DNA of 64,000 nucleotides from a virus. Lineage: Duplodnaviria > Caudoviricetes. The DNA lies in the IMG/VR virus record IMGVR_UViG_3300042291_001013; one strand, 5' to 3'. The position numbers were made by a program, and so were the translations under genes. The stretch's first letter is position 1; every line of letters starts with the position of its first letter. The notes beneath the pieces are model-generated. The model saw only the letters and a program-made list of their open reading frames with translations, made no database searches and had not been told where the DNA came from. Positions 3,826 through 58,499 of the stretch are shown in pieces.

Positions 3826-4413
3826 TTAGAGTTCCTTTGTGTTATTTATACGGTTTAAGAAGTCTTCCATGGGCATGTGAACCAAGTTTACAATACCCTG
3901 CAAGCTGGATAAATTTGCTGTGGTTTTTCCTTGAACTCTAAAAAATCCACATTTGGGAAAATCTTTCATGACTCGTTGCATCTGGCGTTCCCAATTGCCG
4001 GTGTATGTGGGGTTTGATGCGCTTTTTTTGTAAAATTCTGTGTCAGCATACACATTGTTGAACTTGCCTGTTTGAGTTGGACCCATGTCAAACCCAACAA
4101 GATAGATTGCTCTGTGTCCATCCAGCGCGGCTTGTCCCACAGCAATGGGTCCTGAGCTGTAGCCAAAATAGTCTTGAGCTATGCGTCTGGCGCCAGTATC
4201 GGGCAAGGGTTTTCTTGTGTAGTGTATGTGAGTTTGACTGTACCCATCTTGTTGGATACGCAAGCTAATGGGAGCATCAGTACTGATCAGCACATCTGGT
4301 TCAAACTCTTTGTAGATAGCGTTGCATCCGTAGACACGCCCGCAAGTTTTTAACACTGCTAAATCAACTTCTTTGCGGCTGATGCCGTTACCAAGTACAA
4401 ATGCTGGGCCCAT
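3826..4413 (-). CDS. DUF115/MptE-like (Maf-type glycosyltransferase-related) protein
   Basis: N-terminal AFVLGNGISR...VYGCNAIY..FEPDVLIS and later IYLVGFDM motifs match the GNGPS/xGxN/LxGxD pattern of that family; stop abuts the next start (TAAATG). Confidence 0.5.
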   Translation of the reverse strand: MGPAFVLGNGISRKEVDLAVLKTCGRVYGCNAIYKEFEPDVLISTDAPISLRIQQDGYSQTHIHYTRKPLPDTGARRIAQDYFGYSSGPIAVGQAALDGHRAIYLVGFDMGPTQTGKFNNVYADTEFYKKSASNPTYTGNWERQMQRVMKDFPKCGFFRVQGKTTANLSSLQGIVNLVHMPMEDFLNRINNTKEL

Positions 4414-7639: not shown

Positions 7640-8842
7640 TTAGGAGAATGAAAGGTTAGACACAGCGATCTCGCCAACATAGTCACCAGCATTGCCGAAG
7701 CTAGATGCAGTGTTTGTCAACTCGATGTAACCATAACGTGTCATGAATGACACAACTGGTTCGAATGTGCTTGGATCCAACACAACGCCTGAAGACATCA
7801 AAGGAATGTATGGGCAGTAGAATGCTGGAGCGTCTGCTTCTGAAGAACCTTTGTAACCGACCAACACAGGTGTTGTGTCGCTTGCATAAGAGTCAACGAA
7901 CACACGCATTGCGCCGTTCAATGTACCAACAAACTTGGTGTTTGTAGGTGCTTCAAATGTACCTTCTGTAGTACGTGCAAATGCGCTAGTTGTAGCACTT
8001 TGCAATACTGTCAAGGCAGCTGAAGATACAACAGCGTAGTTACCAGCGCCACGACGTGTGCGTTGGGCGATCAAGTTAGCAACACGGTTGATCAGAACTG
8101 CCAATGCGGCGTGTTCGTCACCAACGAATGTAGCTGTACCTGAAACAGTAGCTTGGTTGTATGTGAACTCAGTAGATGCCAATGAGCGCAAGCTCAAAAG
8201 AATCTCTTGGTCAATTTCAGCGGTAATCTCTTGAGCAAGTGCAGCCATGATTTCTGCTTCAACGTCAATACCATGCATGGCTTGTGCGTCTTGTGCAGAT
8301 TCAAATGTCCAACGAGCTTGTAGCTTACGTGTGCGAGCTTCAACAGCTTGCTTCAAGATTTGCACAGAGATCTGACGACCGCCTGTACCTTCCATGGTAG
8401 CTGTAGCACCGCCAGTGTAGCCAGTTGCAGTAGCACCGGCAGCACCGCTAGGAACTGTAGAGTATGCTGTGGCAATCTTGAATGGGCTCAATGCTTCTTC
8501 ACCAGCTGTAACGCTTGTAGCGGCAGCTGAAGAGTCTGTCAAACTGTTGGCATAACGCACACGCAGAGTGTGGATTTGACCAACTGGGCCTGTCATGGGC
8601 TGAACGCCAACCAACTCGTTAGCAATAACGGTAGGCATAACACGACGGATAACTGGCAAAATCACACGGTTAAGTGTGGCAATGTTGCCAGCGGCTGTTG
8701 AACCAGAACTTGCGTTCTCTTTCAAATACTTGCGAGTGTTTTCTAAGATAACACCCATGCTGTTGCGCTTTGAGCCGTTCAGACCTTCAAGCAGAGCTTC
8801 TTTGGTCTCGCCCCAGCGACTTTCTAATAGTTCTTGTGACAT
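7640..8842 (-). CDS. gp23: Major capsid protein (T4 gp23-like)
   Basis: RRVMPTVIANELVGVQPMTGPVGQIHTLR, LAQEITAEIDQEIL, FYCPYIPL and FMTRYG motifs; last gene of the portal-protease-scaffold series. Confidence 0.95.
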   Translation of the reverse strand: MSQELLESRWGETKEALLEGLNGSKRNSMGVILENTRKYLKENASSGSTAAGNIATLNRVILPVIRRVMPTVIANELVGVQPMTGPVGQIHTLRVRYANSLTDSSAAATSVTAGEEALSPFKIATAYSTVPSGAAGATATGYTGGATATMEGTGGRQISVQILKQAVEARTRKLQARWTFESAQDAQAMHGIDVEAEIMAALAQEITAEIDQEILLSLRSLASTEFTYNQATVSGTATFVGDEHAALAVLINRVANLIAQRTRRGAGNYAVVSSAALTVLQSATTSAFARTTEGTFEAPTNTKFVGTLNGAMRVFVDSYASDTTPVLVGYKGSSEADAPAFYCPYIPLMSSGVVLDPSTFEPVVSFMTRYGYIELTNTASSFGNAGDYVGEIAVSNLSFS

Positions 8843-11752: not shown

Positions 11753-13525
11753 TTATACAGCTGGCGGTGCCGCGCCAGGTGCGGCTCCAGGTGCTACACC
11801 AGCTACTTCAGCTGATCCAGGCATTGCACCAGCTGGCTCCATTTGTGACATTTCTTCACCAGTTTCAACGTCTGCCTCTAGGCCGCCGGGGGTTATGCCC
11901 ACACTGCGCAGATCTTGACCTTGAGTGGTTTGCATGTCAGGCTGGTCTCGCTCTTCGCGCCACATTTGTTCGTTTTCTTTGATTTCTTCTTCGGTCAATC
12001 CCAAGAAGCGTTCCAGCATAAAGCGTTTGCTCATGTACGGCAACGGTTCCATTTGCATGAATGCTTGAATTCTTGTGTTGTCTAGCTCGCTTTGACGATA
12101 GCTGGCAAAGTTTTGTGGAGCATTGAACTTGATTGAAAACAGGCCAGAGTCAATGTTGAACCCGCGCCACTTCAAGAACATCTTGAATTCGTCGTCTAGT
12201 TTTTGTGCAATCAACGCTTGTAAACGTTCACAATACTGGTTGAATCTGTACTCTTGTATCAGTGCTGTGCCTACTTTTCCGTCGCTCATGGCACGGTCTG
12301 AGTCGTCAGGACCAGTGGGCAAATAGCTTGAAGGCACACGCAGGCCACGAGCCATTTTGTTGTTGAAATACTTTAAATCGTCAATTTCGCCTAGGTTCTG
12401 GCCACCAGGCAGTGTTTCAACACTGCTTCCGCGACCGTCTTGTCCTTGGGGAAAGAAATAGTCTTCGTTGATGCTGAGTGGATTGTAGCTGGCATCCATC
12501 ATGTTGGTACCACCACCTGTTATTGTGGGAATACGTCGCTGATGCATTTCATTTTTTACACGTTCCACAAACTGCATGGCCAAGTGTGATGGCATGTTGC
12601 CCACGTCAATCTTGAAGATTCGTCGTTCTGGAGCACGTTGTACACGATAGATCAGCACAGCATCTTCCAGCAGTTCTTTTTGCTTGAATACTTTGTAAAT
12701 TTGCTCTAGTACACTGCGTCCAAATGGCCAAAACACGTCCAGGCCTTCGTTCAAGCTCATGTGTATCACGTGCTTGGCATCCAGGCAAGTTTCGTTCATG
12801 GCAGTCATAAAGCGACTGTTGCCCACACCACCACCTGTGCCACCGTTGGGCATGGTGTAGTTTGCGGCACCTGAAATTGACCCTGTAACCGGATTGGTCA
12901 TGTAGTCTGTGGTGGTCTTAGCAGCCACAGTCATGTTTTGGAAGTTGGGGTTGATGTCACGAATCACATACTGCTCAGGACGCTTGCCTTCGCTTTCGTT
13001 TACAATCACTCTAGCAACCTTGGTCATGTCTACCCAGTACATTTCAAATGTTTCTGGATCACGCACAAACACTTGATCACCGTACTTGATGGTGTTGCGG
13101 AACAGTTTGAATATGCGCTGATCCAGTTTGTTCAGTTTGACCCACTGCTGTAACTGTTTCTTGATAATGTCAATCTCGTGATCAGTGGGTTTGTCTTTGT
13201 AGTCTACGTCAAATGGCGTACCATTTGACTCATTCATTTGTGTAGAGAACTCAGCAATGATGTCTAGGCAAGCATTGATTTCTGAGTCCATGTCCATGTT
13301 TTCGTACTGATTATAACGTTCAACACGATTGGGATGGCCTGAGTACACTTCGGGCAGTCGGCTAGCATAGTTACGAAACACAAAGTCAGCTTGTGTTGCT
13401 TGCCCGTCGTTCTTTTCAAACCCTGGCAGGCCATAGCTGTTTCGTCCGTTGATAGGACTCATCACACCTGAAGTGTCTGCTACTTTAAAATACTTTTTCC
13501 AGCCGGGTTTATTTTGATCTGCCAT
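11753..13525 (-). CDS. gp20: Portal protein (gp20-like)
   Basis: LEDAVLIYRVQRAPERRIFKIDVGNMP, EDYFFP...GSSVETLPGGQNLGEIDDLKYF motifs. Confidence 0.95.
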   Translation of the reverse strand: MADQNKPGWKKYFKVADTSGVMSPINGRNSYGLPGFEKNDGQATQADFVFRNYASRLPEVYSGHPNRVERYNQYENMDMDSEINACLDIIAEFSTQMNESNGTPFDVDYKDKPTDHEIDIIKKQLQQWVKLNKLDQRIFKLFRNTIKYGDQVFVRDPETFEMYWVDMTKVARVIVNESEGKRPEQYVIRDINPNFQNMTVAAKTTTDYMTNPVTGSISGAANYTMPNGGTGGGVGNSRFMTAMNETCLDAKHVIHMSLNEGLDVFWPFGRSVLEQIYKVFKQKELLEDAVLIYRVQRAPERRIFKIDVGNMPSHLAMQFVERVKNEMHQRRIPTITGGGTNMMDASYNPLSINEDYFFPQGQDGRGSSVETLPGGQNLGEIDDLKYFNNKMARGLRVPSSYLPTGPDDSDRAMSDGKVGTALIQEYRFNQYCERLQALIAQKLDDEFKMFLKWRGFNIDSGLFSIKFNAPQNFASYRQSELDNTRIQAFMQMEPLPYMSKRFMLERFLGLTEEEIKENEQMWREERDQPDMQTTQGQDLRSVGITPGGLEADVETGEEMSQMEPAGAMPGSAEVAGVAPGAAPGAAPPAV

Positions 13526-13544: not shown

Positions 13545-16394
13545 TTAGCTTTGCATACGCAACATCTTGTTTGCTACACTAGTTGAATCCTTTTGAGCTT
13601 TTACCATTTCCTGCATCATAGCCAGCATTTGTTTGCTGTCTGATGCCATGTTTTCAAACAACTTTATAAAGTCTCCGCTGTTGTTTTGCATTGGTATCAC
13701 TGCTTCTTTGCCGTGTAATGTTGCTTGATATCCTTCGTCTGGCCCATCGGCTATCATACCTTTTTCACCAGACAACTGGAAGTGTACCGGGTCTTTGGGA
13801 ACTACTTGTCGCAACCCCTGATTATTCAACGCCTTGATGGCCGCAGGATCACTGTAGTTTTGAATATCTACTGCTAGTCCTTTTTCGTGTGAACTAGTAC
13901 CCGGGCGACCAACTGGCATACCAGTTGGGCCAATGCCGGGACGTCCAGCATCAATTGTTTCTTGATACAATCGTACTTGATCATCTGGGTCACGTTTGGC
14001 GCTGTTAATTTGGAGTTTATTACCAGTTAATGAATTATACTCGCTGGCAGCCAGCATCACAGCCTTTTCTAATCTGTCATCAAGTGCTTCAAAATTACTT
14101 GCTGAACCGCTATGACCTCCAAATCGTAAAAGATCATTTGGATTACCTGATCCAGCCGCGCCACCACCTCCCGTTAATCCTGATCCACCACCCATGCCTG
14201 GCGCCGCGGGCCTGCCGCCAGATTTTAATCCAGTGCCGCCGCCCATGATAGCTTGTTGTGCGGCACCGGTGCGCATGTTACCAGACTGGGCAAGCGCGGT
14301 GGCAGAACCAGCAGTACTCATATTACCGCCAGCCATCTTGTTCACAATATCCATGATCCCGCCAAGACCAGTTTTGCCTGCTGATTGTTGACCAAATGCT
14401 TGTCCCACTCCGGGCATGCCTTCGTTGTCAACTTCGTTTACTACATCATTCATGAATTCAGTAAGTTTGTTAAAGTATCGCTCTTCAACTTTGCTAAACT
14501 GTTGCATTTTTGTAGTTTGAGTGTCAATAGACTTTTGCTGTGCCTTGTAGTCTTTTAAGATTTCGTCTACTGATGATTTGATCTCTTGAGCTGAACGCTG
14601 TGTATACTCACTGACATTGCCGGCCATGTCCAAGGGAACAATGTTGCCGCCTGTGTCGGGCACAAACAGTTCAGGACCTTTTTCGCCTACAATATAAGGA
14701 ACACTGGAGTCAACCGGCCCGCCCTTTTCTCGTTTTTCAATATTTTTTAACTGCTGACGCAACCAGGCCTTGTCTCGTTCACTTACTCCTGGATCGTCCA
14801 AGGCAATGTTAGCATTATTAACTTCTTCTGGACTACTAGGGGCGTAGTCACGACCAACTGAGCTCATTTGGTTGGCTACAGGCTTGGCTGGCTCTTCTTT
14901 GTAAACGCCAGCCAGTCTTGCCAGAGCCTTTGCCGCTTTGAGCGAAGCTTCAGCTACGTCAATCATGCCTTGTTGTGCTGCCGGAATACCTTCAGCAACA
15001 AGTTTATTAATTTCTTGGTTGATTTCAATCTGTCGATCAACTGTGTCAACTTGACCTTTCAGCAACTTGTCATTTGACATTTTGCGTTTTTTGTCTTCTT
15101 CATCTTTAATGTATTTCTGCTTTTCTTCGTAACTCATGTTACTGAGAATTGAGGATTTTTCCATTTCAGCTGACGACAACTGTATGCCAGCACCAGCATT
15201 CAGTTTGCTCATTGCAATACCAATAGTTTTTTCGTGTCTAGCCACGCCCTTAGTAATACCAGTGAATGCTTGTGCGGCTGTTCTAGTTCCGTTGGCCATG
15301 CCCATGATTTCTTTTTGTGCTATGCCTGCTGTGGTAAAGTTTAATTTCTGTGCATCAGCACTGCGCAAGTTTCCAGTGACCATGGCTTTAAAACCTTCTT
15401 CCATGCCTGGACCAATTGCCGCAGCCATGATCAGACCTTCTTTCAATTGGGCGGCAGCAGCCAAACTTTCAGCATCACCTTTGAGTTCTAGTTCACGTAT
15501 CTTGGCGTTGAACATTTCACTACTCTTGGCACGATCCAGCACGTCCTGCTGTTGCTTGGCGTTCATACCTGTGAGTTCAGCCAGTCTGTTCTGTTGGAAA
15601 ATATATTCTGTAGCACTGGCTGCCAACTCCTTGTTGGTCATGTTTTGCGCACGACCAGTACGTGACATTTCTTTTAGGTATCTTGCTTGGCCTTCAACAA
15701 TATCCACTGTGCTCATGCCCATGGCCAAGAATTCTTTGCGACTGCCTTTCATGGCCTCGCCCATGTCACCCAATCGTTGAACACCCTGAGCGGCGCTGCC
15801 GCCTAACAATGCCAGTTCTTGGCTGTTGCCAGCCACAATGCCTGTCAAGTCACTCAGCTCGTCCATGGTCAAACTCAACTGATTGCTGAGTTTGAGCACG
15901 CCAGTCATGCCAGTAGAAGCTGCCGCTCCAGATTTGGCTAGATCACTGTAGCTTTTGTACAACTTGTCGGACATGGTAGCCGACATTTTCTGAAACTCTG
16001 CACGAGCCTGAATCACACCCACAGTGAGCGCAGTAAAGCCTGCCACTAGACCTTTGATTAACGGTCCACCCGGAATCAACATTGTCAACGCAATTGCCGC
16101 AAGACTTGCGGCTTGAGTCATGTGATCTAGGCCTTCGTTAAACGCCGCGGCACCTTTTTTGCCATCGGCCATGGCCTTGAAAGTAGACACTGCCCCTTTG
16201 GCCAATTCCCCCAGACCTTGTGCAGCCGTAGCAGTACTCTTGCTGAAATTGTCAATGCCATACTTGGACTTCATTTCGGCATCTTTTACCTTCTCAGCTG
16301 TGGCCTGCGTGATTTCGCCAAAAGCGGCCAGTTCTTTATTAACTTGTTGTAGTAACGCCGCTGTTTGTGCGGCTTCTTGATTTACGTCTGCCAT
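13545..16394 (-). CDS. Tape-measure-like protein with C-terminal M15-type (D-Ala-D-Ala peptidase-like) domain
   Basis: Ala/Lys/Gln-rich helical N-terminal two thirds; GGPV..YIVGEKGPELFVP motif; INSAKR...PGTSSHEKGLAVD zinc-peptidase signature. Confidence 0.7.
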   Translation of the reverse strand: MADVNQEAAQTAALLQQVNKELAAFGEITQATAEKVKDAEMKSKYGIDNFSKSTATAAQGLGELAKGAVSTFKAMADGKKGAAAFNEGLDHMTQAASLAAIALTMLIPGGPLIKGLVAGFTALTVGVIQARAEFQKMSATMSDKLYKSYSDLAKSGAAASTGMTGVLKLSNQLSLTMDELSDLTGIVAGNSQELALLGGSAAQGVQRLGDMGEAMKGSRKEFLAMGMSTVDIVEGQARYLKEMSRTGRAQNMTNKELAASATEYIFQQNRLAELTGMNAKQQQDVLDRAKSSEMFNAKIRELELKGDAESLAAAAQLKEGLIMAAAIGPGMEEGFKAMVTGNLRSADAQKLNFTTAGIAQKEIMGMANGTRTAAQAFTGITKGVARHEKTIGIAMSKLNAGAGIQLSSAEMEKSSILSNMSYEEKQKYIKDEEDKKRKMSNDKLLKGQVDTVDRQIEINQEINKLVAEGIPAAQQGMIDVAEASLKAAKALARLAGVYKEEPAKPVANQMSSVGRDYAPSSPEEVNNANIALDDPGVSERDKAWLRQQLKNIEKREKGGPVDSSVPYIVGEKGPELFVPDTGGNIVPLDMAGNVSEYTQRSAQEIKSSVDEILKDYKAQQKSIDTQTTKMQQFSKVEERYFNKLTEFMNDVVNEVDNEGMPGVGQAFGQQSAGKTGLGGIMDIVNKMAGGNMSTAGSATALAQSGNMRTGAAQQAIMGGGTGLKSGGRPAAPGMGGGSGLTGGGGAAGSGNPNDLLRFGGHSGSASNFEALDDRLEKAVMLAASEYNSLTGNKLQINSAKRDPDDQVRLYQETIDAGRPGIGPTGMPVGRPGTSSHEKGLAVDIQNYSDPAAIKALNNQGLRQVVPKDPVHFQLSGEKGMIADGPDEGYQATLHGKEAVIPMQNNSGDFIKLFENMASDSKQMLAMMQEMVKAQKDSTSVANKMLRMQS

Positions 16395-16405: not shown

Positions 16406-16427
16406 TATAAGTAGTTTTATATTTATA
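16406..16427. promoter_or_regulatory. Overlapping divergent late promoters
   Basis: TATAAGTA on plus (16406-16413) and TATAAATA on minus (16420-16427) in the 42-nt gap between divergent start codons. Confidence 0.7.
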
Positions 16428-16436
16428 GGTGAAACT

Positions 16437-17282
16437 ATGTCACAAACTGCGAACCCGCTAAAACAATATTTTAGACAACCTGCAATCTATGTTAGATTGC
16501 CCAGCAACGGAGAATTCTGGGACGATGGCTCTCTCAACTTGCCAGTCAACAAGGAATTGCCAGTGTTGCCCATGACTGCCATTGACGAAATTACATATCG
16601 TACCCCAGACTCCTTGTTTAACGGATCTGCGGTAACTCGCGTGATTCAAAGCTGTGTACCTGATGTCAAGGATGCTTGGGTAGCCCCTGGCAGCGACATT
16701 CCCACTTTGTTGGTGTCTATTCGTATTGCTAGTTATGGACATGACATGGAGATGGCCAGTACCTGCCCTGAGTGCAACACCAGCGGAGAGTACACAATTG
16801 ATTTGCGAGCAGTACTAGAAGGAATTACCCTGGGCGACTACAAAACACCGTTGCAACACGGTGACTTGGAAATTTCTTTTCAGCCCATGAACTATCGTCA
16901 ACAAAACGATGTGAACCAACAACAGTTTGATCAACAACGCACCATTGTCAATGTACAGAACGATCCTGATCTTGACGACAATGAAAAAATTGCACAACTA
17001 AACCAGGCACTTGAAAACATCACCAAACTCACCGTGGGCGCACTAAAATACAGTGTGGCCAGCATCAAGACTCCCAGTGCCTTGGTTACCGAAACTGCTC
17101 ACATTGAAGAATTTTTGCACAACTGTGATCGCAAACTGTTTACTCAAGTTAGAGAAAAAATTGTAGACTTGAGAGAAAAAGGCGAGTTTAGACCCATTCA
17201 TGTCACTTGTGGCAACTGCAATCATGAATACGATCAGATGTTGAATCTAGACCAAACAAGTTTTTTCGCGCCCGCCTCTTAA
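16437..17282 (+). CDS. gp26: Baseplate hub assembly protein / tail assembly chaperone-like (T4 gp26-like), 281 aa from the ATG at 16437
   Basis: NPLKQYFRQP..Y+RLPS.G, PMTAIDE, LL+.IRIASYG and two CxxC motifs. Start moved from the track's 16365, which overlaps the divergent gene, to the ATG after AGGTGA. Confidence 0.75.
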   Translation: MSQTANPLKQYFRQPAIYVRLPSNGEFWDDGSLNLPVNKELPVLPMTAIDEITYRTPDSLFNGSAVTRVIQSCVPDVKDAWVAPGSDIPTLLVSIRIASYGHDMEMASTCPECNTSGEYTIDLRAVLEGITLGDYKTPLQHGDLEISFQPMNYRQQNDVNQQQFDQQRTIVNVQNDPDLDDNEKIAQLNQALENITKLTVGALKYSVASIKTPSALVTETAHIEEFLHNCDRKLFTQVREKIVDLREKGEFRPIHVTCGNCNHEYDQMLNLDQTSFFAPAS

Positions 17283-17308
17283 ATTCTAAGCCTGAAGAAA
17301 TATCTTCA

Positions 17309-17497
17309 ATGGTAGATGCCATGGAGAAAGAGGCCAATAACATCAAGGCACAGTGTCTCAAGATGTCATGGTATCTCCGTGGTGGTGGCACATACGAAGA
17401 CGTGCTGAACATGAGTTACAAAGAACGTACACTTATCAATGAACTCATTAAAGAAAACATGGAAACCACTCAGAAAAGCAAAATGCCACACTTCTAA
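17309..17497 (+). CDS. gp51-like baseplate assembly protein; probably also or mainly made as a -1 frameshift extension of the upstream ORF
   Basis: W.LRGG..Y.DVLNMS..ER pattern; no clear SD; its frame is open back to the slippery site at 17261. Confidence 0.65.
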   Translation: MVDAMEKEANNIKAQCLKMSWYLRGGGTYEDVLNMSYKERTLINELIKENMETTQKSKMPHF

Positions 17498-17997
17498 TGG
17501 AACTAGAAACTGTACGCCAAGACATAGAAAACTGGATAGCGAACTTTTTAGAAGTTCCACATCCGGCCTTGGGCGGCTTTTCTCCGTGCCCATATGCAAG
17601 ATCAGCACGACTAAAAAAAAGCTACGCAGTATATCTTGGTGCTGACCCCTACTACGATTTGAAAAATCGTGGGCGCCAAGGCATGGGCAACTGGGAAGTT
17701 GTTATCTATGTTTATGATCCCAAAGAGTGGAATCATGACATGTTGTCTGGCAGCATTGAACTGGCCAACAAGGAAGTGTTGTTGCCCAGAGACATGATTG
17801 CCTTGGAAGATCATCCTGATGACGCAGAAATAGTCAATGGTGTGTGCATGAACCAAGGAACTTACGCATTGGCATTGGTGCAGAGTCTAAGTGATCTAAA
17901 CACCAAGGCCCGGCTAATGGCCAGCAAAGGATTTTATCATAACTGGCCAGAAGAATACTTGCAAGGCTTGTTTCGTCACAGACAGGATCCCAGATGA
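17497..17997 (+). CDS. Hypothetical protein (166 aa), DUF1415-like N-terminal CPYA motif
   Basis: TAATG and ATGA overlaps with neighbours; W...FLEVPHP..GGFSPCPYAR motif. Confidence 0.6.
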   Translation: MELETVRQDIENWIANFLEVPHPALGGFSPCPYARSARLKKSYAVYLGADPYYDLKNRGRQGMGNWEVVIYVYDPKEWNHDMLSGSIELANKEVLLPRDMIALEDHPDDAEIVNGVCMNQGTYALALVQSLSDLNTKARLMASKGFYHNWPEEYLQGLFRHRQDPR

Positions 17998-41800: not shown

Positions 41801-42321
41801 ACTGGATTCGTGACACAACTGGCACTGTGACTGAGCCTGCACAGCCCACAATTGATGAGCTTTCAACAGCGTATCAAGGACTGAATGATTATAAAATGTT
41901 GAGCGATAATATTATTTTAAATTCCGTAACATTTAAACCGTTGTTTGGAGAAAAGGCTGCAAGTAGTTTACGAGCCACAATCAAAGTTATTCGTGCTTCA
42001 AATTCCACTGCCAGCACCAGCGAAATAAAAAGCGCAGTTGTGGCAGCCATGAACGATTATTTCTCAATTGACAAATGGAACTTTGGAGACACTTTCTACT
42101 TCAGTGAACTTGCGGCTTACTTGCATCGTACACTGGGATCAATTATTAGCTCAGTGGTACTAGTACCACTGGACACACAAAAATACTTTGGAGACCTTTA
42201 CGAAATTCGTTCAGAACCCAATGAAATTTTTGCCAACGGTGCCACAATCAACAACATTGATGTGATTGAAGCATTGACCAGTACCAACCTGCGTACTGCA
42301 CCAGGTAGCGGAGTAATTTAA
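38863..42321 (+). CDS. gp6: Baseplate wedge protein (gp6-like)
   Basis: DFETLRKSFVDYLR, FNDYIESSE...LLDV+A, EN+LDTAERRDSV..LA..+.Y, RMVNGEDY motifs; TAAATA at 38838-38843. Confidence 0.85.
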   Translation: MATTTRQTAIFGVEDWKQIYQTYREADFQSYDFETLRKSFVDYLRLYYPETFNDYIESSEFIALLDVIAFMGQAMAFRTDLNTRENYLDTAERRDSVIKLANLVSYTAKRNTAAQGLLKVLNVTTTENVVDYQGVNLANVTVDWADPTNPDWQEQFTAIINASLLDTQRIGRPGNRQTMLGVRTDEYGINLVPGYLPIVPYTATVDGISMPFEAMSSTSVGRDYLYEPSPTVGNPFNILFRNDQLGFQSANTGYFFMFKQGVLQNQDFNLAEKISNRTVNVNIEGINNEDHWLFQLDNVGNVSREWKYTENIYSAAAEQIGTDLSPIYTITSRTNDQITMVFGDGVFSEIPVGTFRAYVRASNGLQYIINPEEMQAVTIPISYISRSGNLQTITFTCGITRPVSNSQARESVEAIKQRAPARYYTQNRMVNGEDYNLFPYTQYNSIVKSKALNRSSIGTSRYLDLIDNTGKYSSINTFGSDGGLWEQNILPTILFSWTSRNEIADVVTNQVQPQLADSTMRQFYYGNFPRVTETNLPYATTWLTGTTWQQSTTLANETTGYFVNGSGVPVPVGNTTTTMLKYAAVGALIKFVAPTGYYFDGNNKLQQGTATRADETTEIWASPLQVVGDGYNNGIGNLSSGAGPITINNFVPTGAIVDTLIPLFVTDLPLDLEQAMAEQILLYRNFGIGYDSNGSLPITNYTPGSWYLITSTNLAQDATWSQQYAGNTSGANLDASWLVQFTTENQNYTISFRGLAYYFGSVLQTRFFFYGDQQVYDSRTGTVIKDFINVLAVNTQPDSTATLPGNIYMTITGQPVESDGYVDDFQVLVGYRDSDNDGVPDNPDFFDEIVAPTVDANQKLIFLQKTIDFDNLQRFLLVEPGVVNSDYPTYDDLELVKLEWSPGQVFYAYADEDFYQLSVGTTGVRTLIDVSNEWIARTGRQALYYQYRHNSPLTNRIDPGTTNIIDLYVVTLAYYTAYQNWIRDTTGTVTEPAQPTIDELSTAYQGLNDYKMLSDNIILNSVTFKPLFGEKAASSLRATIKVIRASNSTASTSEIKSAVVAAMNDYFSIDKWNFGDTFYFSELAAYLHRTLGSIISSVVLVPLDTQKYFGDLYEIRSEPNEIFANGATINNIDVIEALTSTNLRTAPGSGVI

Positions 42322-45300
42322 TGGCAACAGTTCGTAGTGTTGATTTTCTTCCTGAAATTTTTCAGACTGATGCCAACAAGCAATTTTTAAGAGCCACTCT
42401 TGATCAGTTGATTCAAGAGCCCAAGTTTAAAAAGACTCAAGGCTTTATTGGGCGCACAGTGGGCCCAGGTGTAAATCCCAACGACAAATATGTAGTTGAA
42501 CCCACAGATACTCGAGCCAACTATCAACTTGAGCCTGGCGTTATTAGTTTGGTTCCAGACACTGACACTATTCAAAATGCAATCACATATCCAGGCTTGA
42601 ATGATGCTATTGGATTCCAGGGTGGCAACAACGGCAGACCAGATCGCTTGTACGAAAGTGAATATTACAGCTGGGATCCGTTTGTTGACTTTGACTCATT
42701 TGTAAACTTCAGTCAGTATTTTTGGTTGCCCAACGGACCCGAAGTGGTTGACGTAGCGGCAACAGGCGTAGCAACATCAGACAATTTTATAGTAGATCGC
42801 GAAAATGGTGTGTATACTTTCTCAGGCGTGGCTGGAGAAAATCCTATTATTGAATTGGTGCGTGGCGGCAGTTACACATTCCAAGTTGCGCAAAACAACA
42901 AAGAAACTGTGAACTATCGTGTGCGCAACCAAGGCATTAGTTCATATGTGATTGACTTCCAGAACAACCCAACACTGACTTTGTCTCGTGGTAACACCTA
43001 TGTGTTTAACCTGACACTAAACGGCGACTTCCCATTCTGGATTAAAACTGCGCCAGTCACTGGCCTTGGCAGTCCCTACAACAGCGGTGTTAGCCGCAAT
43101 GGTGCAGTGACTGGACTTGTGACATTTACTGTGCCACAAGACGCACCAGATACTTTGTACTACATCAGTCAAACACAAAGCAACATGCAAGGCGAGTTGA
43201 ATATTGTGGACGGCGTACCGGGTACAGGTCCAGGATTTTGGATTCAAGCCGCCCCTGGTGTGAGTGGTCTCATACCCACAACACCCAATATCAGCAGTCG
43301 CGATGTGTTTGGTGTAACTGGCAACGGTGAAGATTTGGGCACTATTGTTTTCAACGTGCCCAGTAAAACAGCGCAGAGTTTTTACTACGATCTCAACCCC
43401 ATTACTTCAATTGACTTGATAACTGGACTAAAGTTTGATGAAATCAACAACCAACCAGTTGATCAATTTATTTTACAATACGGCGGCATTGACGGCATCA
43501 CAAACTTGAATGGCCGCACACTGATATTCACTAATCCTCTTACAGATGACACTGATGGCGGATGGCTACGCACAACGTTGTTTGATCCTTTAGAGCCTGG
43601 CGCTGCCAACAATGGCCTAGCAGGCAGTTTTGACTCACTACCATATGACCAAACTCTGATAATTGAACCTGAACAACGCTATCAGCGTTGGCAAATTTCT
43701 TATGTCAACGTTGCTGGTACAAATTATCTTTACTGTTCCAAGATTGCTGACATTGCGCCCTTGGACAAGTTCAACATTGGGTACGGCAATACGTACAGTA
43801 ATACTCAATGGTACAAAGACGCTACTGGCACATTCAAACAAGTTCCATTGTTGACAGCAGTACAAGATACCTTGTACTATCAAGACGGAACTGATCCTGA
43901 AATCTTTGGCACTATCAAGTTGCTTGAGCAAACTGGTGCGTCTACTTTGTTTGTGGATCAAATTTTGGGACGTAAAACCTACACCAGTCCCAACGGAGTT
44001 GAATTTAGCAATGGTCTCAAAGTTAGATTTACAAGCGACGTAAGTCCAGCCAGTTATGGATCAGGCACTACTTCAATTACCTATACCGAAACTGAATCAG
44101 GCACAAATTATATCACGTCTAACAGCAGTAATAATTTGTATGTAGGGGAACAAATTGTATTCAATAGCCCAAGCCTTGGAGGCCTGTTGCCTGGTCAAAC
44201 TTATTATGTGCGAAGCATAGCGGCCAGCGGGTTAAAATTTACAGTCAGCACCGTGGACGGCGGCCCAGCAGTTTCTTTATTGACTGGAACTGGCACGGCC
44301 TTTGCAACCTCAATCAGCAATGTAGAATATTATGTTAGCGGTGTTGGCACCAGCATTGAACTGTTGCCAGTAAGAGATTTTACCACACCAGAAACCTATG
44401 TGGTTGACGCATTTGACAGTACCATTGCCACAGAACCTGACCAACTGGACTATCTCACAATTAGCCGAGCCAGCAAAGACCTCAACGCATGGACACGTAG
44501 CAACCGCTGGTTCCACATTGATGTGATCAATGCCACAGCTGACTACAACAACTCTGTGGCTGTGTTGGACAACAACTATCGAGCCAAACGCCCAGTTATT
44601 CAATTCCGTCCAGGTATTAGACTCTGGAACATGGGCACCAGCGGCAAAGCGCCAGTTGATATCATTGACTTTGATGAAACTGATGCCTTTAGTAATATTG
44701 AAGGATCAACCAGTTACAGCACAGATGGTTACACTTTTGTAGAAGGCACACGAGTAATCTTTGCCGCAGACACAGATGCAGACGTGCGAGACAAAATTTA
44801 CATTGTGAGTTTTGTAACCCCTGACACTGTTGCTCCACTAATAGCACAACCTATTATTGTGTTGACCCTGGCTGCTGATGGTTTGATCAGTCTTGATCAA
44901 AGCACTGTCTGCTTGTATGGCAACAGCTTGCAGGGTCTAACCTTTTGGTATGATGGCACTGAGTGGACTCAAGCACAGCAAAAAACTGGTGTACAGCAAG
45001 CCCCATTGTTCAACGTGTATGACCCCCAAAGCGTAAGTTTTGGCGACGGAACCAAGTATCAGTCTACAACTTTTGCAGGCAGCAAACTATTCAGTTATGC
45101 TGTGGGCGACAGTTCTATATTGGATCCAGTACTGCAATTCCCCCTGCAATACTTGAACATCAACAACGTTGGTGACATTGTGTTTGTCAACAACTTGTAC
45201 AATGACACATTCTTGTATGTGGTTGACAACGTTTCTGTAACCAGTGACATCAGCTCAGGCTCAGTGCGAGAATATACCACACGAGAAACTTATCAAAAGT

Positions 45301-48300
45301 TGTTGGGTTGGCAAACTGCCATCTCAGACAGCAAAGTTTACCAACAGTTTAAATTTAGTTACAGTGGCACCACACTAAAACTTGACGTGTCTGTGTTGAA
45401 TCAAGTAACTTCCGCTGTGCCTGTGATCAAAGTCTATTTTGGTAGTGAGTTCCAAGATCCAGGAACATACACTTATATTACCACTAGTAACAGTACCACA
45501 ATCACTTTGAATGGTACCTATGTGCTTGGCGACATCATTGAAGTGTTGGCTCTAAGCAATCAAACCAGTCAAGCGGCGTTTTATCAGGTGCCCAATAATC
45601 TTGAATCAAATCCGCTTAATGCCAACAGCCCCAATTTTACCTTGGGTACTATTCGCCAACACTATCAGAGCATTTGCGAAAACTTGCTGACCTTGAGAGG
45701 TCCGGTAAACGGCGCCAACAACACTAGGGACCTTGGTGATATCATACCTTATGGTCTTACAATTTTACAACAAAGCTCACCACTGACTCTGGCAGGTTAT
45801 TTCATGCGCAGTCAAGACTACAATATATTTGCGGCGTTGCAATACAACAGCCAAGAGTATTTGAAGTTCAAAGCACAGATGTTAGACTCAGTAATCAGTC
45901 AAAACATTGGGTTCAATTCAACCGCACAGATTCTTGACACTGCAATTCAAAATATCACGTTGGGCAAGCTGGATAGTCAGCCATTCTATTGGGGTGACAT
46001 GATCCCACAAGGGGTCACAACCTACAGCAACAGCTACACTGTGAGTTTTATTACTCGTCCCACATTTGACACTGTTCAAGTGTATAACTTTGAATCAGCA
46101 AATTATCTTGGCCTTTGTGTATACATCAACGATGTAATTCTGGTACGTGGAGTAGACTATGATGTTGCCACAGATGGCCCACGTCTTACTATCACCCGCA
46201 CATTGAATTTGGGTGACATTGTGTTGATCAACGAGTATTCAGAAACTTATGGTGCATTTGTTCCCAACACACCTACCAAAATGGGATTGTACCCAGCCTA
46301 CATTCCTGTTATCACTGATCAAGTAACCAGTACTGGAACCGAAACTGTTATTATCGGGCACGATGGCAGTGTTACCAAAGCGTTTGGCGACCTGCGTGAC
46401 GAAGTGCTGTTGGAGTTTGAAAAACGAGTTTACAGCAATCTCAAGTTGGATGGAAATCCTGTACCAATAACAATTGAAGAAGTATTGCCCGGTGAGTTCC
46501 GCGAAACTGGATTTACATTTGAAGAAATCAATACTATTTTTGCTCAAGACCTATTGAGCTACTGTGGCTGGAACAAACTGGATTACAAAACACAAAACTT
46601 CTCGGCCAATAACGAGTTCACGTGGAATTACAGCACTGCTACCAACAAGCTCAATAATGAAAATTTATTGGGTGCCTGGCGCGGTATCTATCGCTATTTC
46701 TATGACACACAACAGCCAAGTCTGAGTCCTTGGGAAATGTTGGGATTGGCAGAGAAACCACTGTGGTGGGAAGGTCGCTATGGCACAGCGCCATACACAT
46801 CAGACAACTTGGTTTTATGGGATGACCTAGAAGCCGGCTATGTTGCTGATCCTGTGGCCCCATTCTATCGTCCTGAGTATGCTCGTCCAGGCTTGACCAA
46901 GGTAATTCCAGTTGATGATCAAGGCAACTTGGTCAGCCCATTTGTCAGTGTGGTCAGCAACTATCAAGAAAATCAATTCCAGAAGTCGTGGGCCATTGGT
47001 GATGGCGGCCCAGTTGAAGCGTCATGGTGGAACAGCAGTGCATATCCTTTCTCAGTAATGCATGTGCTTGCAGTCACACGCCCAGCCAAGTTCTTTGCAC
47101 TGTTTGCTGACCGCGATCGATACAAGTATAACGAAGATTATCAACAATATCTGTACGACAATCGTTACCGCCTGGATGCCAATGGAGTTCAAGTGTATGG
47201 CAATGGTGTCAGCAAAGCCAGTTTCATGGACTGGATTGTGGACTTTAACCGTCAGACTGGTATTAATTCTACTGATGCATTACAAGCAGACCTCAAGAGT
47301 CTTGACGTAAGACTGTGCTATCGCATGGCCAGCTTTAGTGACAAACAGTATATTAAACTTTACACTGAAAAGTCCAGTCCCAACTCTACCAATACTGCGT
47401 TGCAGATTCCTGATGAGAGTTACAATGTATTGCTGTATAAGAATCAGCCGTTTGATCGAGTAATTTACAGCTCAGTTGCAGTGCAAAAAGTTGCAGGCGG
47501 ATATGCAGTATTTGGTTATGGTAACAGCCAGCCTTACTTCAACATCCTGGAAAGCAAGGCAGTGGGCAAAATGCAAACAATTACCACGTCAGGCATTACT
47601 ATCAAAGTGCCAACATTTTACACTGATAACGTTGTACAAGTTCCATACGGATTTATCTTTACCAACGCAACCAGTGTAGCAGACTTTTTGTTAAGCTACG
47701 GACAATTTTTACAGCGTCAAGGACTGGCATTTACCAACATTGCCAATGGTTATGTGCTGGACTGGGGCAGAATGGTCAACGAATTCCTGTACTGGACTGC
47801 ACAAGGCTGGGGCGAAGATGCTATCATTAATTTGAATCCCTTGGCAGCAGGATTGGATATCACACGACCACAAGCTATTGTGGACAGCGTCAACGCTGAA
47901 ACTACTGAGAATTTAATACTGGATCAAAACTCACGCGAAATATCCAGCCGCAATCTCAATGTTGTGCGCCTGGGCAACTACTTTTCTATCCAGCCCCTGA
48001 GCACACAAAGTCTCAGCTACATTGATCTGCGCTACACCAACTATGAACACATGATTGTGTTGGACAACCAAAGTGTGTTTGGTGATTTGATTTATGATCC
48101 AATCACTGGCGCTAGACAAAGTCGTTTGAATTTGATTGCGGCCACTAGCGATGAATGGAACGGCAGTGTTGACGCTCCGGGCTTTATTTTAAATCAAGAC
48201 AACGTTGAAGAGTGGACTGGCCTGCGCACTTACACCAAAGGCGAAATTGTCAAATACAAGAACGTGTACTGGTCAGCATTGACCATTGTACAACCAACAG

Positions 48301-51300
48301 ACAAGTTTGATTTTAATGTTTGGACACAGAGTGACTTTACTCAAACTGAAATAGGTCTGTTGCCAAACTTGGCCAACAAAGCAAATCAATTGGCCAACAG
48401 CTATGATATCAATCAAGCCAACCTTGAAGGCGACAATGACTTGCTCAGTTATGGCTTGACTGGATTTAGACCACGACAGTACATGTCTGCTTTGAATCTT
48501 GATGATGTAAGCCAGCTCAATGTGTATAGACAGTTCATTGGGGACAAAGGTTCTGTATTGTCAGCTGAATTGTTTAAATCAGCTAACCTGGGCAAAGAGT
48601 CTGCTGACTACGACATTTTTGAAAACTGGGCAGTTCAACGTGCTGTGTATGGCGCCAATGCCAACCGCAGTTTCTTTGAATTGCGTTTGAATCGTGCGCT
48701 ACTAAATCCAAACCCCAGTCTGATACAAGTGGTGATTCCACAACAACAAAGTTCAGCTGACCAACAAATTTTACTGAGTGCGGTGTGGAGACAAAGCTAC
48801 AAACTCACAAGCCCTGATATTCTGCCCACCACCATAGAATTGCCAACCGACATTGGTTTGCCCACAGCTGGGTATGTAAATCTTGATGATGCAGATATCA
48901 CAGTGTTTGACATCAACAATCCAGCCAGTCTCAATGCCAACATTGACAATATTGAAGTTGGTACCAGTATCTGGGTGGCCAAAGTCAACAGCTATGACTG
49001 GAACATCTATCGAGCACAGGCAGTGCCAGGAGTAATTCAGCACGTATGTGACAACTTGAATGGCACCAGCCGAGTAATTTTTAGTCAAAATCACGGACTT
49101 GTTGCGGGTAACAAACTGATTATCAAATTCTTTGACACTGAAATCAACGGTGTTTATCAAGTGCTGTCAGTGTCTAATCTAACCACAGTAAACATTAGCT
49201 TTAGATTCACTGGTAGTCGCACAGTGGCCAACGGATCTGGCCTGGGATATACTTTGCAAACCATGAGGGTATCACAAGCCAGTGACGTTATTAACTTGCC
49301 TTACGCAAATAACATTTTGCCAGGTGCTAAAGTCTGGGTTGATGACAACGGTCAAGGTTTGTGGGAAGTTCTTGAAAAGAACGAAGTATTTTCAGATGTC
49401 ACAAGCCTAAGTCCAATACTGCTAGACGCAGGCGAACAGTATGGCTCAAGTGTGGCACAGGCACAGAATAGATTGGCTGCCTTGGTTGGTAGTCCACGTT
49501 ACGGTTTTGGCAATGTGTCAGATCCCGAGCTTGCTCAAGGTGCATTGTACCTATACGTTAAAGCCTACACTGATCAATATCAACCAGTGACTCCGTTGGG
49601 AAATACTGACGCTGTATTCAAACTTGATGCTACTGGCATTCGTGGTTATGGCAATGCTGTGGACTTTGGGAATCAAGCCTGGGCTATTGCTGGAGCCAGC
49701 AACAGTACTGACCAACTCAGCATGTCAATCATTGCCGCAAGTGGCGATGGGTCAACAGTCACAATCACATTCCCTACAATGACCAGTGCACCTTTTAGCA
49801 TTGGCGATTCAGTAGTGATTACTGGGGTTAATCCAGACAGTTACAACGGCACTTGGACACTGACCAACTGCACTTCTAGCCAGTTGCAATTTGCTAGTAC
49901 CAACACCAACATTTACTTGTCGGGCGGCAAAATCACACAAAACAGCAACTACAGCACACAAGTTGGTACTGCCTGTGTTATCTATCGAGATCCTGCACTG
50001 GGTCAGCCTGGCGCAGTGCCTTTCGCACAGTGGCAATTGTTGACACCACCTGCTGTAACCAGTCCATTTGGAGCACCTGGCACTAGAGAATTTGGCTACA
50101 GCGTGGCCATGAGTCTTGATGAACGTTGGGCTTATGTAGGATCACCTGCCACAAACGAAGTTCATGCTTATGGACGAGTTGATTATGAAAATCAATTTGC
50201 TCGAGCACGTGGAGATGGTGTAACTAAAACCTACAACATTGCTGATCGAATTCAAATCAATGCTTCAACACAGCTCAAGATCACAATTGATGGAACTATA
50301 CAAACCCTAGGAACCAACTATACTGTTGCACCATCCCTTGGCTCAGTGACATTTACAATTGCCCCGCCTGCTGACACGCTGATAGATATTCAACGAATTT
50401 TCACGCAACAGCTTGACGCACAAAACTATTATGATGTGATTCAAAGCGCAACCTCAGGTTCAGGCACTGGCGCCAAGTTTACTATTGTGCGTGTGCGTGG
50501 CCAAGTGGGCCAAACTCCTGGCGGCGAAGGCAGCGTGGGTACTACCAGTTTGGGTTCAGGATATGCAGTAAATGACACTATTGATATTGCGGCATCAACA
50601 TTTGGTGGCGGCTCAAGTCCAGCAAACGACATTGTGCTTACAGTGTTGACTGTGGGCACTGGCGGTGCGTTGGGATTATTCTCAATTGCTTACACAGCCC
50701 CCACATTGACCAGCACATTCTCATTAAACGAGTATTTCTTTACAGCAACAACAATCAACAGTTTCAGCGTCACAGTTGATGATGCGTTACAAAGACCAAA
50801 TCTTGACTACACATTCAACACCACAACTGACGATTTACGATTTGAAAATGTTCCGCCTGCTGGTTCTGTGATTATTGTCAACGCTCAGGGCTACTTTGAA
50901 TATGTGTCCACGATTGACACTTCTGACGTACCTGGTGGATTGGTAGCAGGTGATAGATTTGGCGAAAGCATTGCTATAACCACAGACGGGCGACAGATCA
51001 TGGTTGGTGCTCCTGATAGTGGTATCAATGGTGAAACTGAGTCTGGTGCAGTGTACATTTTTGATCGAAACGTACAGAAGTTTATCTACAATTCAGATAA
51101 TTCCACAATTTCTGGTTATGAATTTACCTTGCTTGGTACCCCAGTTGGTCCTATCAGTGTGATAGTAAACAATGTGTTCTTGCAAAATGAATACACAACA
51201 CTTCCAAGTGCTCCTAACACGTTTGAGTGGAACGGTGCAAACACAGTAACAATTAATGCAGAGCTACAAACTGGTGACATAGTTGAAATTGAAACTAATC

Positions 51301-54300
51301 AATTTAGATTTGTGCAACGAGTAGATCAAGAAACTGCGGCTGAGTTTTCCAACTTTGGTCAAGCTGTTGACATTTGCCCGTACAACTGTAGTCTCTATGT
51401 TGGTGAACCCAACAGCAGTGTACAAGTATTCAAGGGTGGTATTGTTGAACGCAATGTAAACCAAAGCCGTATCTATGGTACGACCACTGCTACAACTGCT
51501 AACCCAACATTAGCGGCGGCCAGCACAATTCGTGTCAATGACATGGATGTATTGGTACCCGGCAGCTGGTCTAGTGCCAGCACTTATCCAGTTAACACTG
51601 TGGTAACCAATACTGTTGGCAGTACAACAACTATCTATCTAAGTTTGCAAGCAGTTCCTGCACTGACTTTGATTACCAACACTTCGTACTGGCAAGTAAT
51701 TACATCAACCACGGTACTTGCCAGCGTAAATGTGCGAGCACTTGCCGCGCAGATCAATGTGTCTGTGCCAAACGTTAGTGCCACAGTTGATGTCAACGGA
51801 TACATGACTATTGCAGTCAAGAACAATGATGCGGCAGCTGAATTTAACAAAGTACAAGTTGCTCCTGGGTCAGGTTCAGGAACATCATTCAATAATCTAG
51901 GGTTTGAAACATTTGTTTGGACACAAAATATTTTAAGCCCGTACCCTGTTGATTATGCACAGTTTGGCGGCAGCGTCAGCATTGATGATTCAGCAGTGAA
52001 TCTTGTGGTAGGTGCGCCCAATGGTACCTTGTATCTAGAAACTGTGTTTGACGATGGTACAACATTCTTTGATTCTGGCAGTACCATATTCTTTACAATT
52101 ATTGTACAGAGTGGTGCCGCATACACGTTTGATTATTTGCCAAGTTCTAGTTTGGTAGTGACTAACCCAGGCAAATTTGTATTTGGACAACAGGTCAGCA
52201 ACAGTGAAGTACAATCGTTAGACTCATTTGGTGTGGCAGTAAATTACACTGGTGGTGTGCTCATGGTGGGCGCACCCAAGAACGATGTTGGTGATTCAAC
52301 TTCAGCGTTTGGTGCTGTATTTGTGTTTGAAAACCCCAATCGTTTACCTGCTTGGACAATACAAACAATAGAACAACCAGTAGTGGATGTGCGGTTGTTG
52401 AACTCGGTATTCTTGTATGATAGAATTTCCAGTGCAGTTACTGAACACCTGGATTGGCTCAACCCGTTACAAGGCAAAATACTAGGCGCCGCAAGACAAA
52501 ACATTGACTATATTGGTGCTGTAGATCCTGCCAGTTACAATGTTGGTCCTCTCAACGTTAGAGGCACAACTTGGGTTGGTGGCCACCTGGGAGAAATTTG
52601 GTGGGACACTAGTTCTGTAAGATTTATTGACCCCAATCAAGACGACATTACCTATGCGGCTCGACGTTGGAGCCAAGTGTTCCCTGGCAGCGAAATTGAT
52701 GTCTATCAATGGATTGTAAGTTCAGTACCACCGGCGCAATACATTGGCGAAGGCGTGATTAAAGATACGCTGAGCTACGTTGTAAATTCTCGCTTGACCA
52801 AAGATGGCACCATTGCTACCGATTACTATTTCTGGGTTCGTGGTATTACTGTGACTGCAACAGCACTGGGCAAAACATTGCCAGCATCTACTGTTGCCAA
52901 CTATATTGAAAACCCAAGAGCCAGTGGAATACCTTATGTTGCACCAATCAATGCCAGCACAATTGCTATCTATAATTCGGGTGATTACATTGAAGCTCAA
53001 GATACAATTATTCACATTGAATTTGATCGTGAACTTACCAATGATAATGTACACGTTGAATATGAACTGATCCCACAAGATCGTGCTGATGGCTTCTTGA
53101 GTGGCAATCTTTACCGCAAACTGCAAGACAGTTTCTGCGGTGTTGACAGTTTTGGTAACCTTGTACCTGACCCTAATCTCAGCATAGCTGAACGTTATGG
53201 CGTACAGTTCCGTCCACGTCAATCTATGTTTGTGGATCGATTTGCGGCTCTTAAAAACTACCTGAATCGATGCAATACTGTGTTGGCACAGTATACCATT
53301 GCTGAAAGCCGCAGTTTTAATTTGCTTAACAGTGCAGAGCCAGAACCAGGATCTAGTACTGGCTTGTGGAACTTGCGTGTGGCCAACTTGGAAATCTTGG
53401 GATTCCAGAATATCTATACAGTGCCCTTGGGTTATCGATATCTTGTGGTCACTGACAGTAGCAACCGTGGTTTGTGGACAATCTACACTGTAGAAAACAG
53501 TGACCAAATCCCAGGTGAACGAGCGTTGATTCTAACACGAGTTCAGGGTTACAATACCCCAGACTACTGGAGTTACATTGATTGGTATCGCCCTGGGTAC
53601 AATTCCAGCACCAAGGTCATTACGGAAGTTCCAGTATTCAGCTCATTGACCACACTGGAAGTTGCTGTTGGCAGCAGTGTCAAAGTCACAGCCAATGCTC
53701 AAGGCAAGTGGGAAATTTACCTGCGCACTGATCTTGGTTATGAACGTGTGGGCTTGCAAGATGGGACCATAGAGTTTTCTGCAGAGCTTCATGATTATGC
53801 TCTGGGACGTTTTGGTTTTGACGTTGAAGTTTTTGACGCTCAATACTATGACCAAGAGCCTGTGATTGAAACACGCAAAGTTATCCAGGCCATCAACGAA
53901 GAATTGTTTGTTGACGACCTGGCAATTCAACGCAACAAAGCCCTGGTGCTGATGTTTAACTATGTGTTGAGTGAATTCTCAGCGCCAGAATGGTTGGTCA
54001 AGACCAGTCTGATTGACGTTGATCATAGAATTCGTGATTTGGTTCCGTACCAAAACTACGTGCGTGATAACCAAGAATTTGTGTCAGACTATATTCAAGA
54101 AGTCAAGCCTTATCACGTGAGTGTGCGCGAGTTCAACTTGAAATACACTGGCTTTGATGAATTCTTTGGCGACATGAGTGACTTTGATGTGCCAGCATAC
54201 TATGATGTTTCTTTAGAAGTTCCGCAGTATGTGAGCCCAATTTTGTTACCATACTATCACAGTGACAGCTTTAATGCGGCGTTTAACACCAAGAGCGACG

Positions 54301-57897: not shown

Positions 57898-58499
57898 TAG
57901 TACCCGGATTGTGCAAGATTGAGGGATTTGTAAAGATACACAACCCCAAAACTGGTGAAGTTCTAGTGGACAAAAAGAACGCAATTCACTATGAAAACAT
58001 TTCAGTGGCCATGGCACAAACTCTTAGTGATCGTGGCCTGGGATACATATACGAAATGGCATTTGGCAACGGCGGTAGCTCAGTAGACCCCACTGGCGTT
58101 ATCACATACTTGCCCCCAAACACCACAGGCCAAAACGCTGACCTGTACAACCAAACTTATTCTAAAGTTGTAAACGATAACTCTGCGGCAGACACTGACC
58201 CGGCCAACAACAAAATGACAGTTTTGCACACAGCCGGCAATGTTTATACAGATATCTTAGTAACTTGTTTGTTGGACTATGGCGAGCCCCCAGAACAGCA
58301 GGCATTTGACAACTCAACCAACTTCAACGGTGAGTTTGTTTTTGATGAACTTGGGCTAAAATCATGGAACGGGGCCGCAGATAATTTGCGCTTGATCACT
58401 CATGTGATTTTCCACCCCGTACAAAAGAGTTTGAACCGTCAAATTCAAATTGACTACACATTGAGAATTCAGACGTTGAGCAATATCAACGCTGTATAA
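57894..58499 (+). CDS. Putative virion structural protein (201 aa)
   Basis: In the late structural operon; MAFGNGG and FDELGL...LITHVIFHPVQKSLNR beta-rich motifs. Confidence 0.6.
   Translation: MIVPGLCKIEGFVKIHNPKTGEVLVDKKNAIHYENISVAMAQTLSDRGLGYIYEMAFGNGGSSVDPTGVITYLPPNTTGQNADLYNQTYSKVVNDNSAADTDPANNKMTVLHTAGNVYTDILVTCLLDYGEPPEQQAFDNSTNFNGEFVFDELGLKSWNGAADNLRLITHVIFHPVQKSLNRQIQIDYTLRIQTLSNINAV

Follow-up and report, generated by a model that had tools for sequence, protein, structure and literature searches.

A probable programmed -1 frameshift joining gp26-like and gp51-like reading frames in a T4-like jumbo phage

Genes and reading frames at the locus

The window, i.e. the whole stretch of 64,000 nucleotides that was analysed, is part of a T4-like jumbo phage that is present in lake-water metagenomes. 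The features considered are as follows.

7640-8842: major head protein, by profile match (phrog_138)
11753-13525: portal, by profile match (phrog_213)
13545-16394, minus strand: tape-measure-like gene, 949 aa, with a VanY-type peptidase domain, divergent from the putative chaperone gene
16406-16413, plus strand, and 16427-16420, minus strand: two overlapping, oppositely facing T4-late-type boxes, TATAAGTA and TATAAATA respectively, by consensus match only
16437-17282, plus strand: gp26-like gene, predicted short form (TAC-N or G), 281 aa, 31.6 kDa, with two CxxC pairs
17261-17267, plus strand: T TTT TTC, the slippery heptamer, with an invariant G next to it at 17268
17261-17497, plus strand: Gp51_C-like extension in the -1 frame (TAC-C or T), running for 78 codons counted from the shift site
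17274-17280, plus strand: GCCTCTT, the 5' strand of a predicted stem of 7 bp that begins 6 nt past the heptamer and is a candidate frameshift stimulator
17309-17311, plus strand: ATG taken as the small-ORF start in gene calling but probably an internal Met codon
17328-17334, plus strand: 3' strand (AAGAGGC) of the predicted stem; the partner used in another clade lies 21 nt further on

The gp26-like ORF extends from the ATG at 16437 to the TAA at 17280-17282 and ends with the codons AGT TTT TTC GCG CCC GCC TCT TAA. The -1 frame is open for 16 codons from 17261 to the ATG at 17309 and onward to the TAA at 17495-17497, and the predicted fusion has 353 aa (277 + 76) and a mass of 40.2 kDa. The heptamer, the open -1 frame, the distance to the ATG and the length of the fusion had all been given in the original prediction and were confirmed from the sequence, as was the absence of a clear Shine-Dalgarno (SD) sequence before the ATG at 17309, for which the anti-SD duplex is -1.0 kcal/mol, as against -3.7 kcal/mol at the gp26-like start. 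An in-frame heptamer of the form X XXY YYZ within the last 10 codons occurs in only three of the 86 long ORFs of the window, among which the gp26-like ORF has the longest -1 extension. There is a second T TTT TTC in the window at 34343 on the minus strand, near the end of a 100-codon stop-free stretch and with a 50-codon -1 frame, but it is antisense to a 1084-aa gene and probably arose by chance. No tRNA genes were found in the window.

The two predicted products could be told apart by their tryptic peptides. The junction peptide first proposed would be cut by trypsin after Arg; the predicted diagnostic peptide instead ends ...DQTSFFR in the long form and ...DQTSFFAPAS in the short form, with LLNSKPEEISSMVDAMEK as a further predicted peptide of the long form.

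Protein families and natural fusions

The short form, G, matches PF12322 (E 7e-15) and positions 4-233 of the 282 positions of phrog_150 (E 5e-17). On the same profile T4 gp26 spans 14-235, gp51 spans 13-280 and the -1 peptide of cyanophage P-HM1 spans 231-281, and therefore gp26 corresponds to G and gp51 to G+T. An AF2 model of G (pLDDT 86) matches predicted models of gp26 and of baseplate hub chaperones in BFVD. A search of the model against PDB folds gave nothing clear, and comparison with solved TAC structures gave generic helical-hairpin matches only, results that are compatible with kinship.

The T part is predicted to be helical and is a Gp51_C look-alike in the Atlas (0.93, 181 shared features). 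There was no real match to the T part or to its alignment in scans of Pfam, PHROGs and NCBIfam, and a fold search of T against BFVD likewise gave no match, which is also compatible with kinship. The T part of the window matches the cyanophage-type T parts at a profile E of about 1e-3, these in turn match gp51 positions 200-243 at E 3e-5, and the direct comparison of the T part with T4 gp51 gives E 0.04. By sequence the link to T4 gp51 is indirect and weak, chained through the cyanophage-type T parts; taken with the Atlas match and the natural fusions to phrog_150 domains described next, it supports homology of the T part to the gp51 tail.

Longer homologs of T were not found by a word-index search, but a full HMMER search then revealed about 20 natural in-frame fusions of 320-351 aa, in which a phrog_150 domain is followed by T positions 2-78, linker included. 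The junction of these proteins, xxF-R, is in the same register as the predicted FF-R, while the junction codons are non-slippery, and the conceptual fusion from the window aligns with them from end to end at 29-32% identity (E to 1e-63). The natural fusions are the strongest support for the protein assignment. In all six loci looked up, the fused gene lies directly behind a short PF12322 paralog, as in the case of T4 genes 26 and 51, and in five of these six a divergent gene lies on the other side of the pair. Uncultured jumbo phages (loci L344-L350) carry such pairs of PF12322 genes in tandem, the short one of 276-319 aa and the long fused one of 320-351 aa, and two of the short paralogs still end in T TTT TTC, although their -1 frame closes at once.

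Neighbourhood of the tape-measure-like gene

A long divergent ORF of 694-1246 aa adjoins G head to head in 74 of 74 loci, mostly at a distance of 39-42 bp. The 949-aa gene of the window looks like a tape measure on the basis of its Atlas matches to tape-measure families (0.84-0.91), the length range of its counterparts, and the RaK2 record, in which the counterpart is annotated as similar to a tape measure. A VanY/M15-type peptidase domain near the C-terminus of the tape-measure-like protein is a candidate cell-wall-cutting domain.

The 42-bp gap between the two genes holds the opposed late-type boxes, full versions of which are present on the plus strand in 47 and on the minus strand in 56 of the 74 loci. 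The divergence of the gp26-like pair from the tape-measure gene, as originally proposed, holds, whereas the single promoter that they were thought to share is replaced by two late-type boxes facing in opposite directions. Other perfect late-type boxes are found in the window at 3843 and 11750 on the minus strand and at 58495 on the plus strand. Behind T, at 17497-18766, are three coupled genes, DUF6875-like (weak), ATE_C-like GNAT (weak) and DUF6614 (strong), and a 5135-aa ORF at 42321-57728 on the plus strand lies in a run of large, probably structural genes.

One alternative explanation accepts the frameshift but takes its products to be baseplate-hub parts or hub-specific factors, rather than chaperones of the G/GT kind that bind the tape measure and the tube. 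This would agree with the 'baseplate hub' annotation of gp26-like genes and with genetic reports, cited in the T4 review, that place gp26 in the T4 hub; the same review, however, lists gp29, the T4 tape measure, as itself a hub component. The adjacency to a tape-measure-like gene in every locus also argues for chaperones, as does the gene order, which is tube, gp26-like gene, small ORF and tape measure in the Bacillus phages SP-15 and HSE3 and the same without the tape measure in phiM19 and pf16; in the window the gp26-like gene is divergent from the tape-measure-like gene and does not lie between tube and tape measure. Further, the PA5oct record carries a virion MS note on the neighbouring gene and none on the gp26-like gene. 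A hub role for the products is accordingly considered unlikely, and the interpretation as G/GT-like chaperones is preferred.

Conservation of the heptamer and the -1 frame

Approximately 330 loci were fetched together with 22 annotated phage records besides T4, and the main conservation set consisted of 94 non-redundant loci less than 85% identical to each other. Within the first locus set the heptamer was present in 147 of 150 distinct junctions, the three exceptions being a broken gene and two Bacillus phages in which the arrangement is +1, and all complete -1 frames among the 150 junctions were 64-84 codons long. In the main set T TTT TTC G was kept in 94 of 94 loci. By comparison, TTT-TTC was the choice for only 18 of the 64 Phe-Phe pairs elsewhere in these genes and, at the end of the T part, for 14 of 78, and silent sites elsewhere are saturated. 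The codon before the Phe-Phe pair is one of six different codons, the final base of which is always T. Over the nine linker codons that lead from the frame-0 stop to the annotated ATG, stops occurred in none of the 94 loci in the -1 frame, in 26 in frame 0 and in 78 in the +1 frame, and variation within the linker peaks at the third positions of the -1 frame. The homolog alignment called for in the original prediction thus came out in its favour; formal p-values overstate independence here because the loci are related.

The site was also present in 70 of 70 loci chosen by their T part, and in 65 of 66 loci of a divergent clade. Among cultured jumbo phages a T TTT TT(C/T) site with an open -1 frame was found in all 11 examined, and among other T4-like phages in eight of nine, namely the cyanophages S-PM2, S-CAM7 and P-HM1, and phiM19, pf16, ValKK3, Aeh1 and Mendera. 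The closest cultured relatives of the gp26-like protein (25-32% identity) are in Atu_ph07, Phosso, PA5oct, 121Q, RaK2, GAP32, XacN1 and similar phages of 290-490 kb.

There were several variant junctions. Vibrio phage K369 (L185:2060-2300) has CTT TTC AAG in place of T TTT TTC, with a -1 frame open into a T-like ORF. In SP-15 (L175:3190-3217) and HSE3 (L177:3185-3208) it is the +1 (or -2) frame, not -1, that is open for the T-like ORF, starting from TTT TTT CAC and TTC TTT CGT respectively, and these two phages are likely +1 or -2 variants within this protein family. One locus with 28% identity (L341) has neither the heptamer nor a T ORF in the -1 frame, and another (L165) has a premature stop inside the gp26-like gene.

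Start codon of the small ORF

Across the 94 loci the second ORF is open and coding-like from the shift site onward without a conserved start. The ATG at 17309 is present in 32 of the 94 relatives, the ATG at 17321 in 82, with Leu codons in the remainder, and in five loci there is no ATG, GTG or TTG in codons 1-33 of the T ORF. SD pairing before the small-ORF starts is weak compared with that at the gp26-like start.

These observations bear on the possibility that there are two separate genes, the small ORF being translated from its own ATG (17309 or 17321), with the help of an SD or through re-initiation once the gp26-like ORF has been terminated, with the Phe-Phe pair kept for protein reasons. 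The retention of the ATG at 17321 is in keeping with this, as is anti-SD pairing slightly above that of internal ATGs (26% as against 7% at or below -3.5 kcal/mol), and the databases do annotate a separate small gene. T4 gp26 also ends in FF without a slippery run, which suggests that FF has a role in the protein. Such a role, however, could hold neither the synonymous codons constant in every locus of the main set nor the -1 linker stop-free and coding-like; moreover, some loci lack any start codon, and the natural fusion proteins contain the linker. Two independently translated genes are thus very unlikely, although some additional initiation at the ATG at 17321 may occur alongside the frameshift. 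There was no clear signal of an upstream stimulator of the SD type, 23% of loci being at or below -3.5 kcal/mol.

Candidate RNA stem downstream of the site

The 70 nt past the site fold better than shuffled sequences (mean z -2.1, with flanks at about 0), and for the window z is -2.4. The near-invariant GCCUCCU that lies 6 nt past the heptamer finds its AGGAGGC partner at +67 to +73 (register 1; 68 loci) or at +88 to +94 (register 2; 28 loci). At least six of the seven pairs form at one of the two registers in 90 of 94 loci, and the registers nearly exclude each other (62 loci with the first only, 22 with the second only, 6 with both and 4 with neither). A Glu codon at the paired place is GAG in 61 of 62 and 21 of 22 loci, respectively, and mostly GAA where unpaired; GAG makes up 27% of the Glu codons elsewhere in T, and the GAG at the paired place flips with the register. 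Position +18 covaries from C-G to U-A, the window carrying U-A, and over all 94 loci 87.7% of register 1 cells are paired, as against 39-63% for slid partners. The 5' strand of the stem is also under a double coding constraint. The attempt to fit one consensus fold to all loci failed because the 3' partner differs among clades.

Strong stems at 2-6 nt from the site were also found in Atu_ph07, Phosso, XacN1 and several T4-like phages, and a strong stem after the site was absent from RaK2, Munch and GAP32. The sister clade represented by L003 has no stem (mean z -0.06), and the stem is thus not required family-wide. In the window's clade only, the stem has the spacing (5-9 nt past the heptamer) and the covariation support expected of structure-stimulated -1 frameshifting. 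Taken together, the pairing data indicate a stem that is likely real in this clade and not universal, and that probably stimulates frameshifting. The AGGAGG of the 3' strand was also considered as an SD for an inner start; this was rejected for register 1, where a start codon lies 4-10 nt downstream in only 10 of 68 loci. For register 2 an ATG follows AGGAGG in 14 of 22 loci, and there the motif may serve as such an SD.

The position of the stem is also relevant to the source of the shift, which could in principle be transcriptional, i.e. RNA polymerase adding one U within the T6 run. The run consists entirely of T and reaches T7 or more in four or five distant phages, but transcriptional slippage by realignment is named for T>8, so that a T6 run makes this explanation improbable. 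The run also keeps one phase, X XXY YYZ, in which the C never varies, and a 3' stem at 6 nt fits pausing of the ribosome, as expected of translational frameshifting. Lastly, splitting of a single fused gene by a homopolymer error in assembly, suggested by the position of the junction in a T run, is in effect refuted by conservation, since more than 200 independent contigs and finished genomes show the gene split in this way, and four public lake-water assemblies (which may be near the source sample) carry the junction with no indel and no substitution.

Comparison with known systems

The two T4 genes in the published account of TAC-N and TAC-NC are reportedly 26 and 51. That account assigns gp26 and gp51 of T4-like phages to these chaperone types (Vladimirov, Gautam, Davidson, Virology 2022, 566:9, pmid 34826709), and the proteins of the window belong to the same families, PF12322, phrog_150 and Gp51_C. 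As cited elsewhere, it reports that in the frameshifting groups the gp26-like gene carries a poly-T -1 site at its end (PMC12846349) and that some groups have a two-gene arrangement, short plus fused (PMC10885494). Since gp26/gp51 proteins were published as frameshift chaperones in 2022, this is not a new inference. The T part of the window is about 15 residues longer than that of the cyanophages. T4 gp26 (208 aa) corresponds approximately to the span of G and gp51 (249 aa) to that of G+T, and T4 gene 26, like the window gene, is divergent from an operon (51-27-28-29) that contains the tape measure gene, 29. In T4, however, there are two genes, the first of which ends in TTC TTT (not slippery), whereas the window has one. 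The T4 review lists gp26 and gp51 as hub assembly chaperones, with gp51 absent from the particle.

The conserved G-T frameshift of lambda (Levin 1993; Xu, Hendrix, Duda 2004, 2013, 2014; reviewed in PMC5009743) similarly gives a short and a long product, gpG and gpGT, of one gene through a -1 slip near the stop, adjoining the tape-measure gene, a likeness without evident sequence similarity. Unlike in lambda, G of the window is 281 aa long with zinc-ribbon-like CxxC pairs, its gene is divergent from the tape measure, and a conserved 3' stem is predicted. The ratio for lambda is 30:1, with a frameshift rate 2-3 times higher in P2. In Vandenendeviridae and Andersonviridae, TAC loci have an invariant GTTTTT -1 site and resemble the window in their poly-T site, their stop-free -1 frame and the misannotation of the small ORF as separate; they belong to other families and, unlike the window, are co-oriented with the tape measure, and the evidence for them is bioinformatic, the same kind as that for the window (PMC12846349).

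Proposed mechanism and implications

These results make it very probable that the locus encodes tail assembly chaperones of the G/GT (TAC-N/TAC-NC) type through a programmed -1 frameshift. The interpretation draws support from a heptamer and an open -1 linker that are both conserved, from a small ORF that has no conserved start, from natural fusions that share the register, and from the mapping of the two parts onto gp26 and the gp51 C-terminus. The broader proposal that gp26/gp51-type proteins of this lineage are frameshifting tail chaperones is upheld on the same sequence-based grounds, i.e. conservation, fusions and mapping.

Under this model one late mRNA would give two tail assembly chaperones. 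The majority of ribosomes would stay in frame on UUU UUC, terminate four codons further on and so yield the 281-aa short form (G or TAC-N, T4 gp26-like). A minority would slip back one base on U UUU UUC, with two tRNA-Phe re-pairing on UUU UUU, and would read 76 more codons to give the 353-aa long form (GT or TAC-NC, T4 gp51-like). A tandem slip of this kind accords with established decoding rules. In the window's clade the stem 6 nt past the site probably makes the ribosome pause and thereby determines the rate, which by analogy with lambda or P2 would be low. By analogy with lambda, the tape-measure protein encoded by the divergent neighbour would be coated by the short form and joined to the tail tube protein by the rare long form, with neither form staying in the virion; the chaperone role is drawn from lambda and T4 gp26/gp51. 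The slip, its rate, the role of the stem and the chaperone activity are thus all inferred.

The concept is already known; what is added here is a 7-bp stem with a 3' partner that switches between two positions among clades. In a quick tree the group with two genes nests inside the window's clade, away from T4, and an AU test does not reject a single clade of this group with T4 gp51 (p 0.135). The balance leans slightly towards the combined proposal that frameshifting in this clade is tuned by a long-range stem, the invariant 5' strand of which has switched between two 3' partners spaced by one helical heptad (21 nt), and that in a sister group a T4-style gene pair (short plus hard-wired fusion) has taken the place of the frameshift, possibly independently of T4. 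If this is true, there would be a natural series for control of the G:GT ratio, comprising slippage with a stem, slippage without a stem, and two genes.

The natural fusions, being in the exact register, support the published model of gp26/gp51 as G/GT, and culturable relatives and a candidate stimulator are now on hand for a first experimental test. The chaperone interpretation also points to the divergent gene of 700-1200 aa as the tape measure. In jumbo phages like RaK2, 121Q, PA5oct and Atu_ph07, the gene annotated as 'baseplate hub' most likely forms, together with the small ORF that follows it, a single chaperone gene that is read by frameshifting. The T ORF is unannotated in the records of PA5oct (L006), RaK2 (L008), RsoM2USA (L173) and Aeh1 (L183) though the -1 frame is open.
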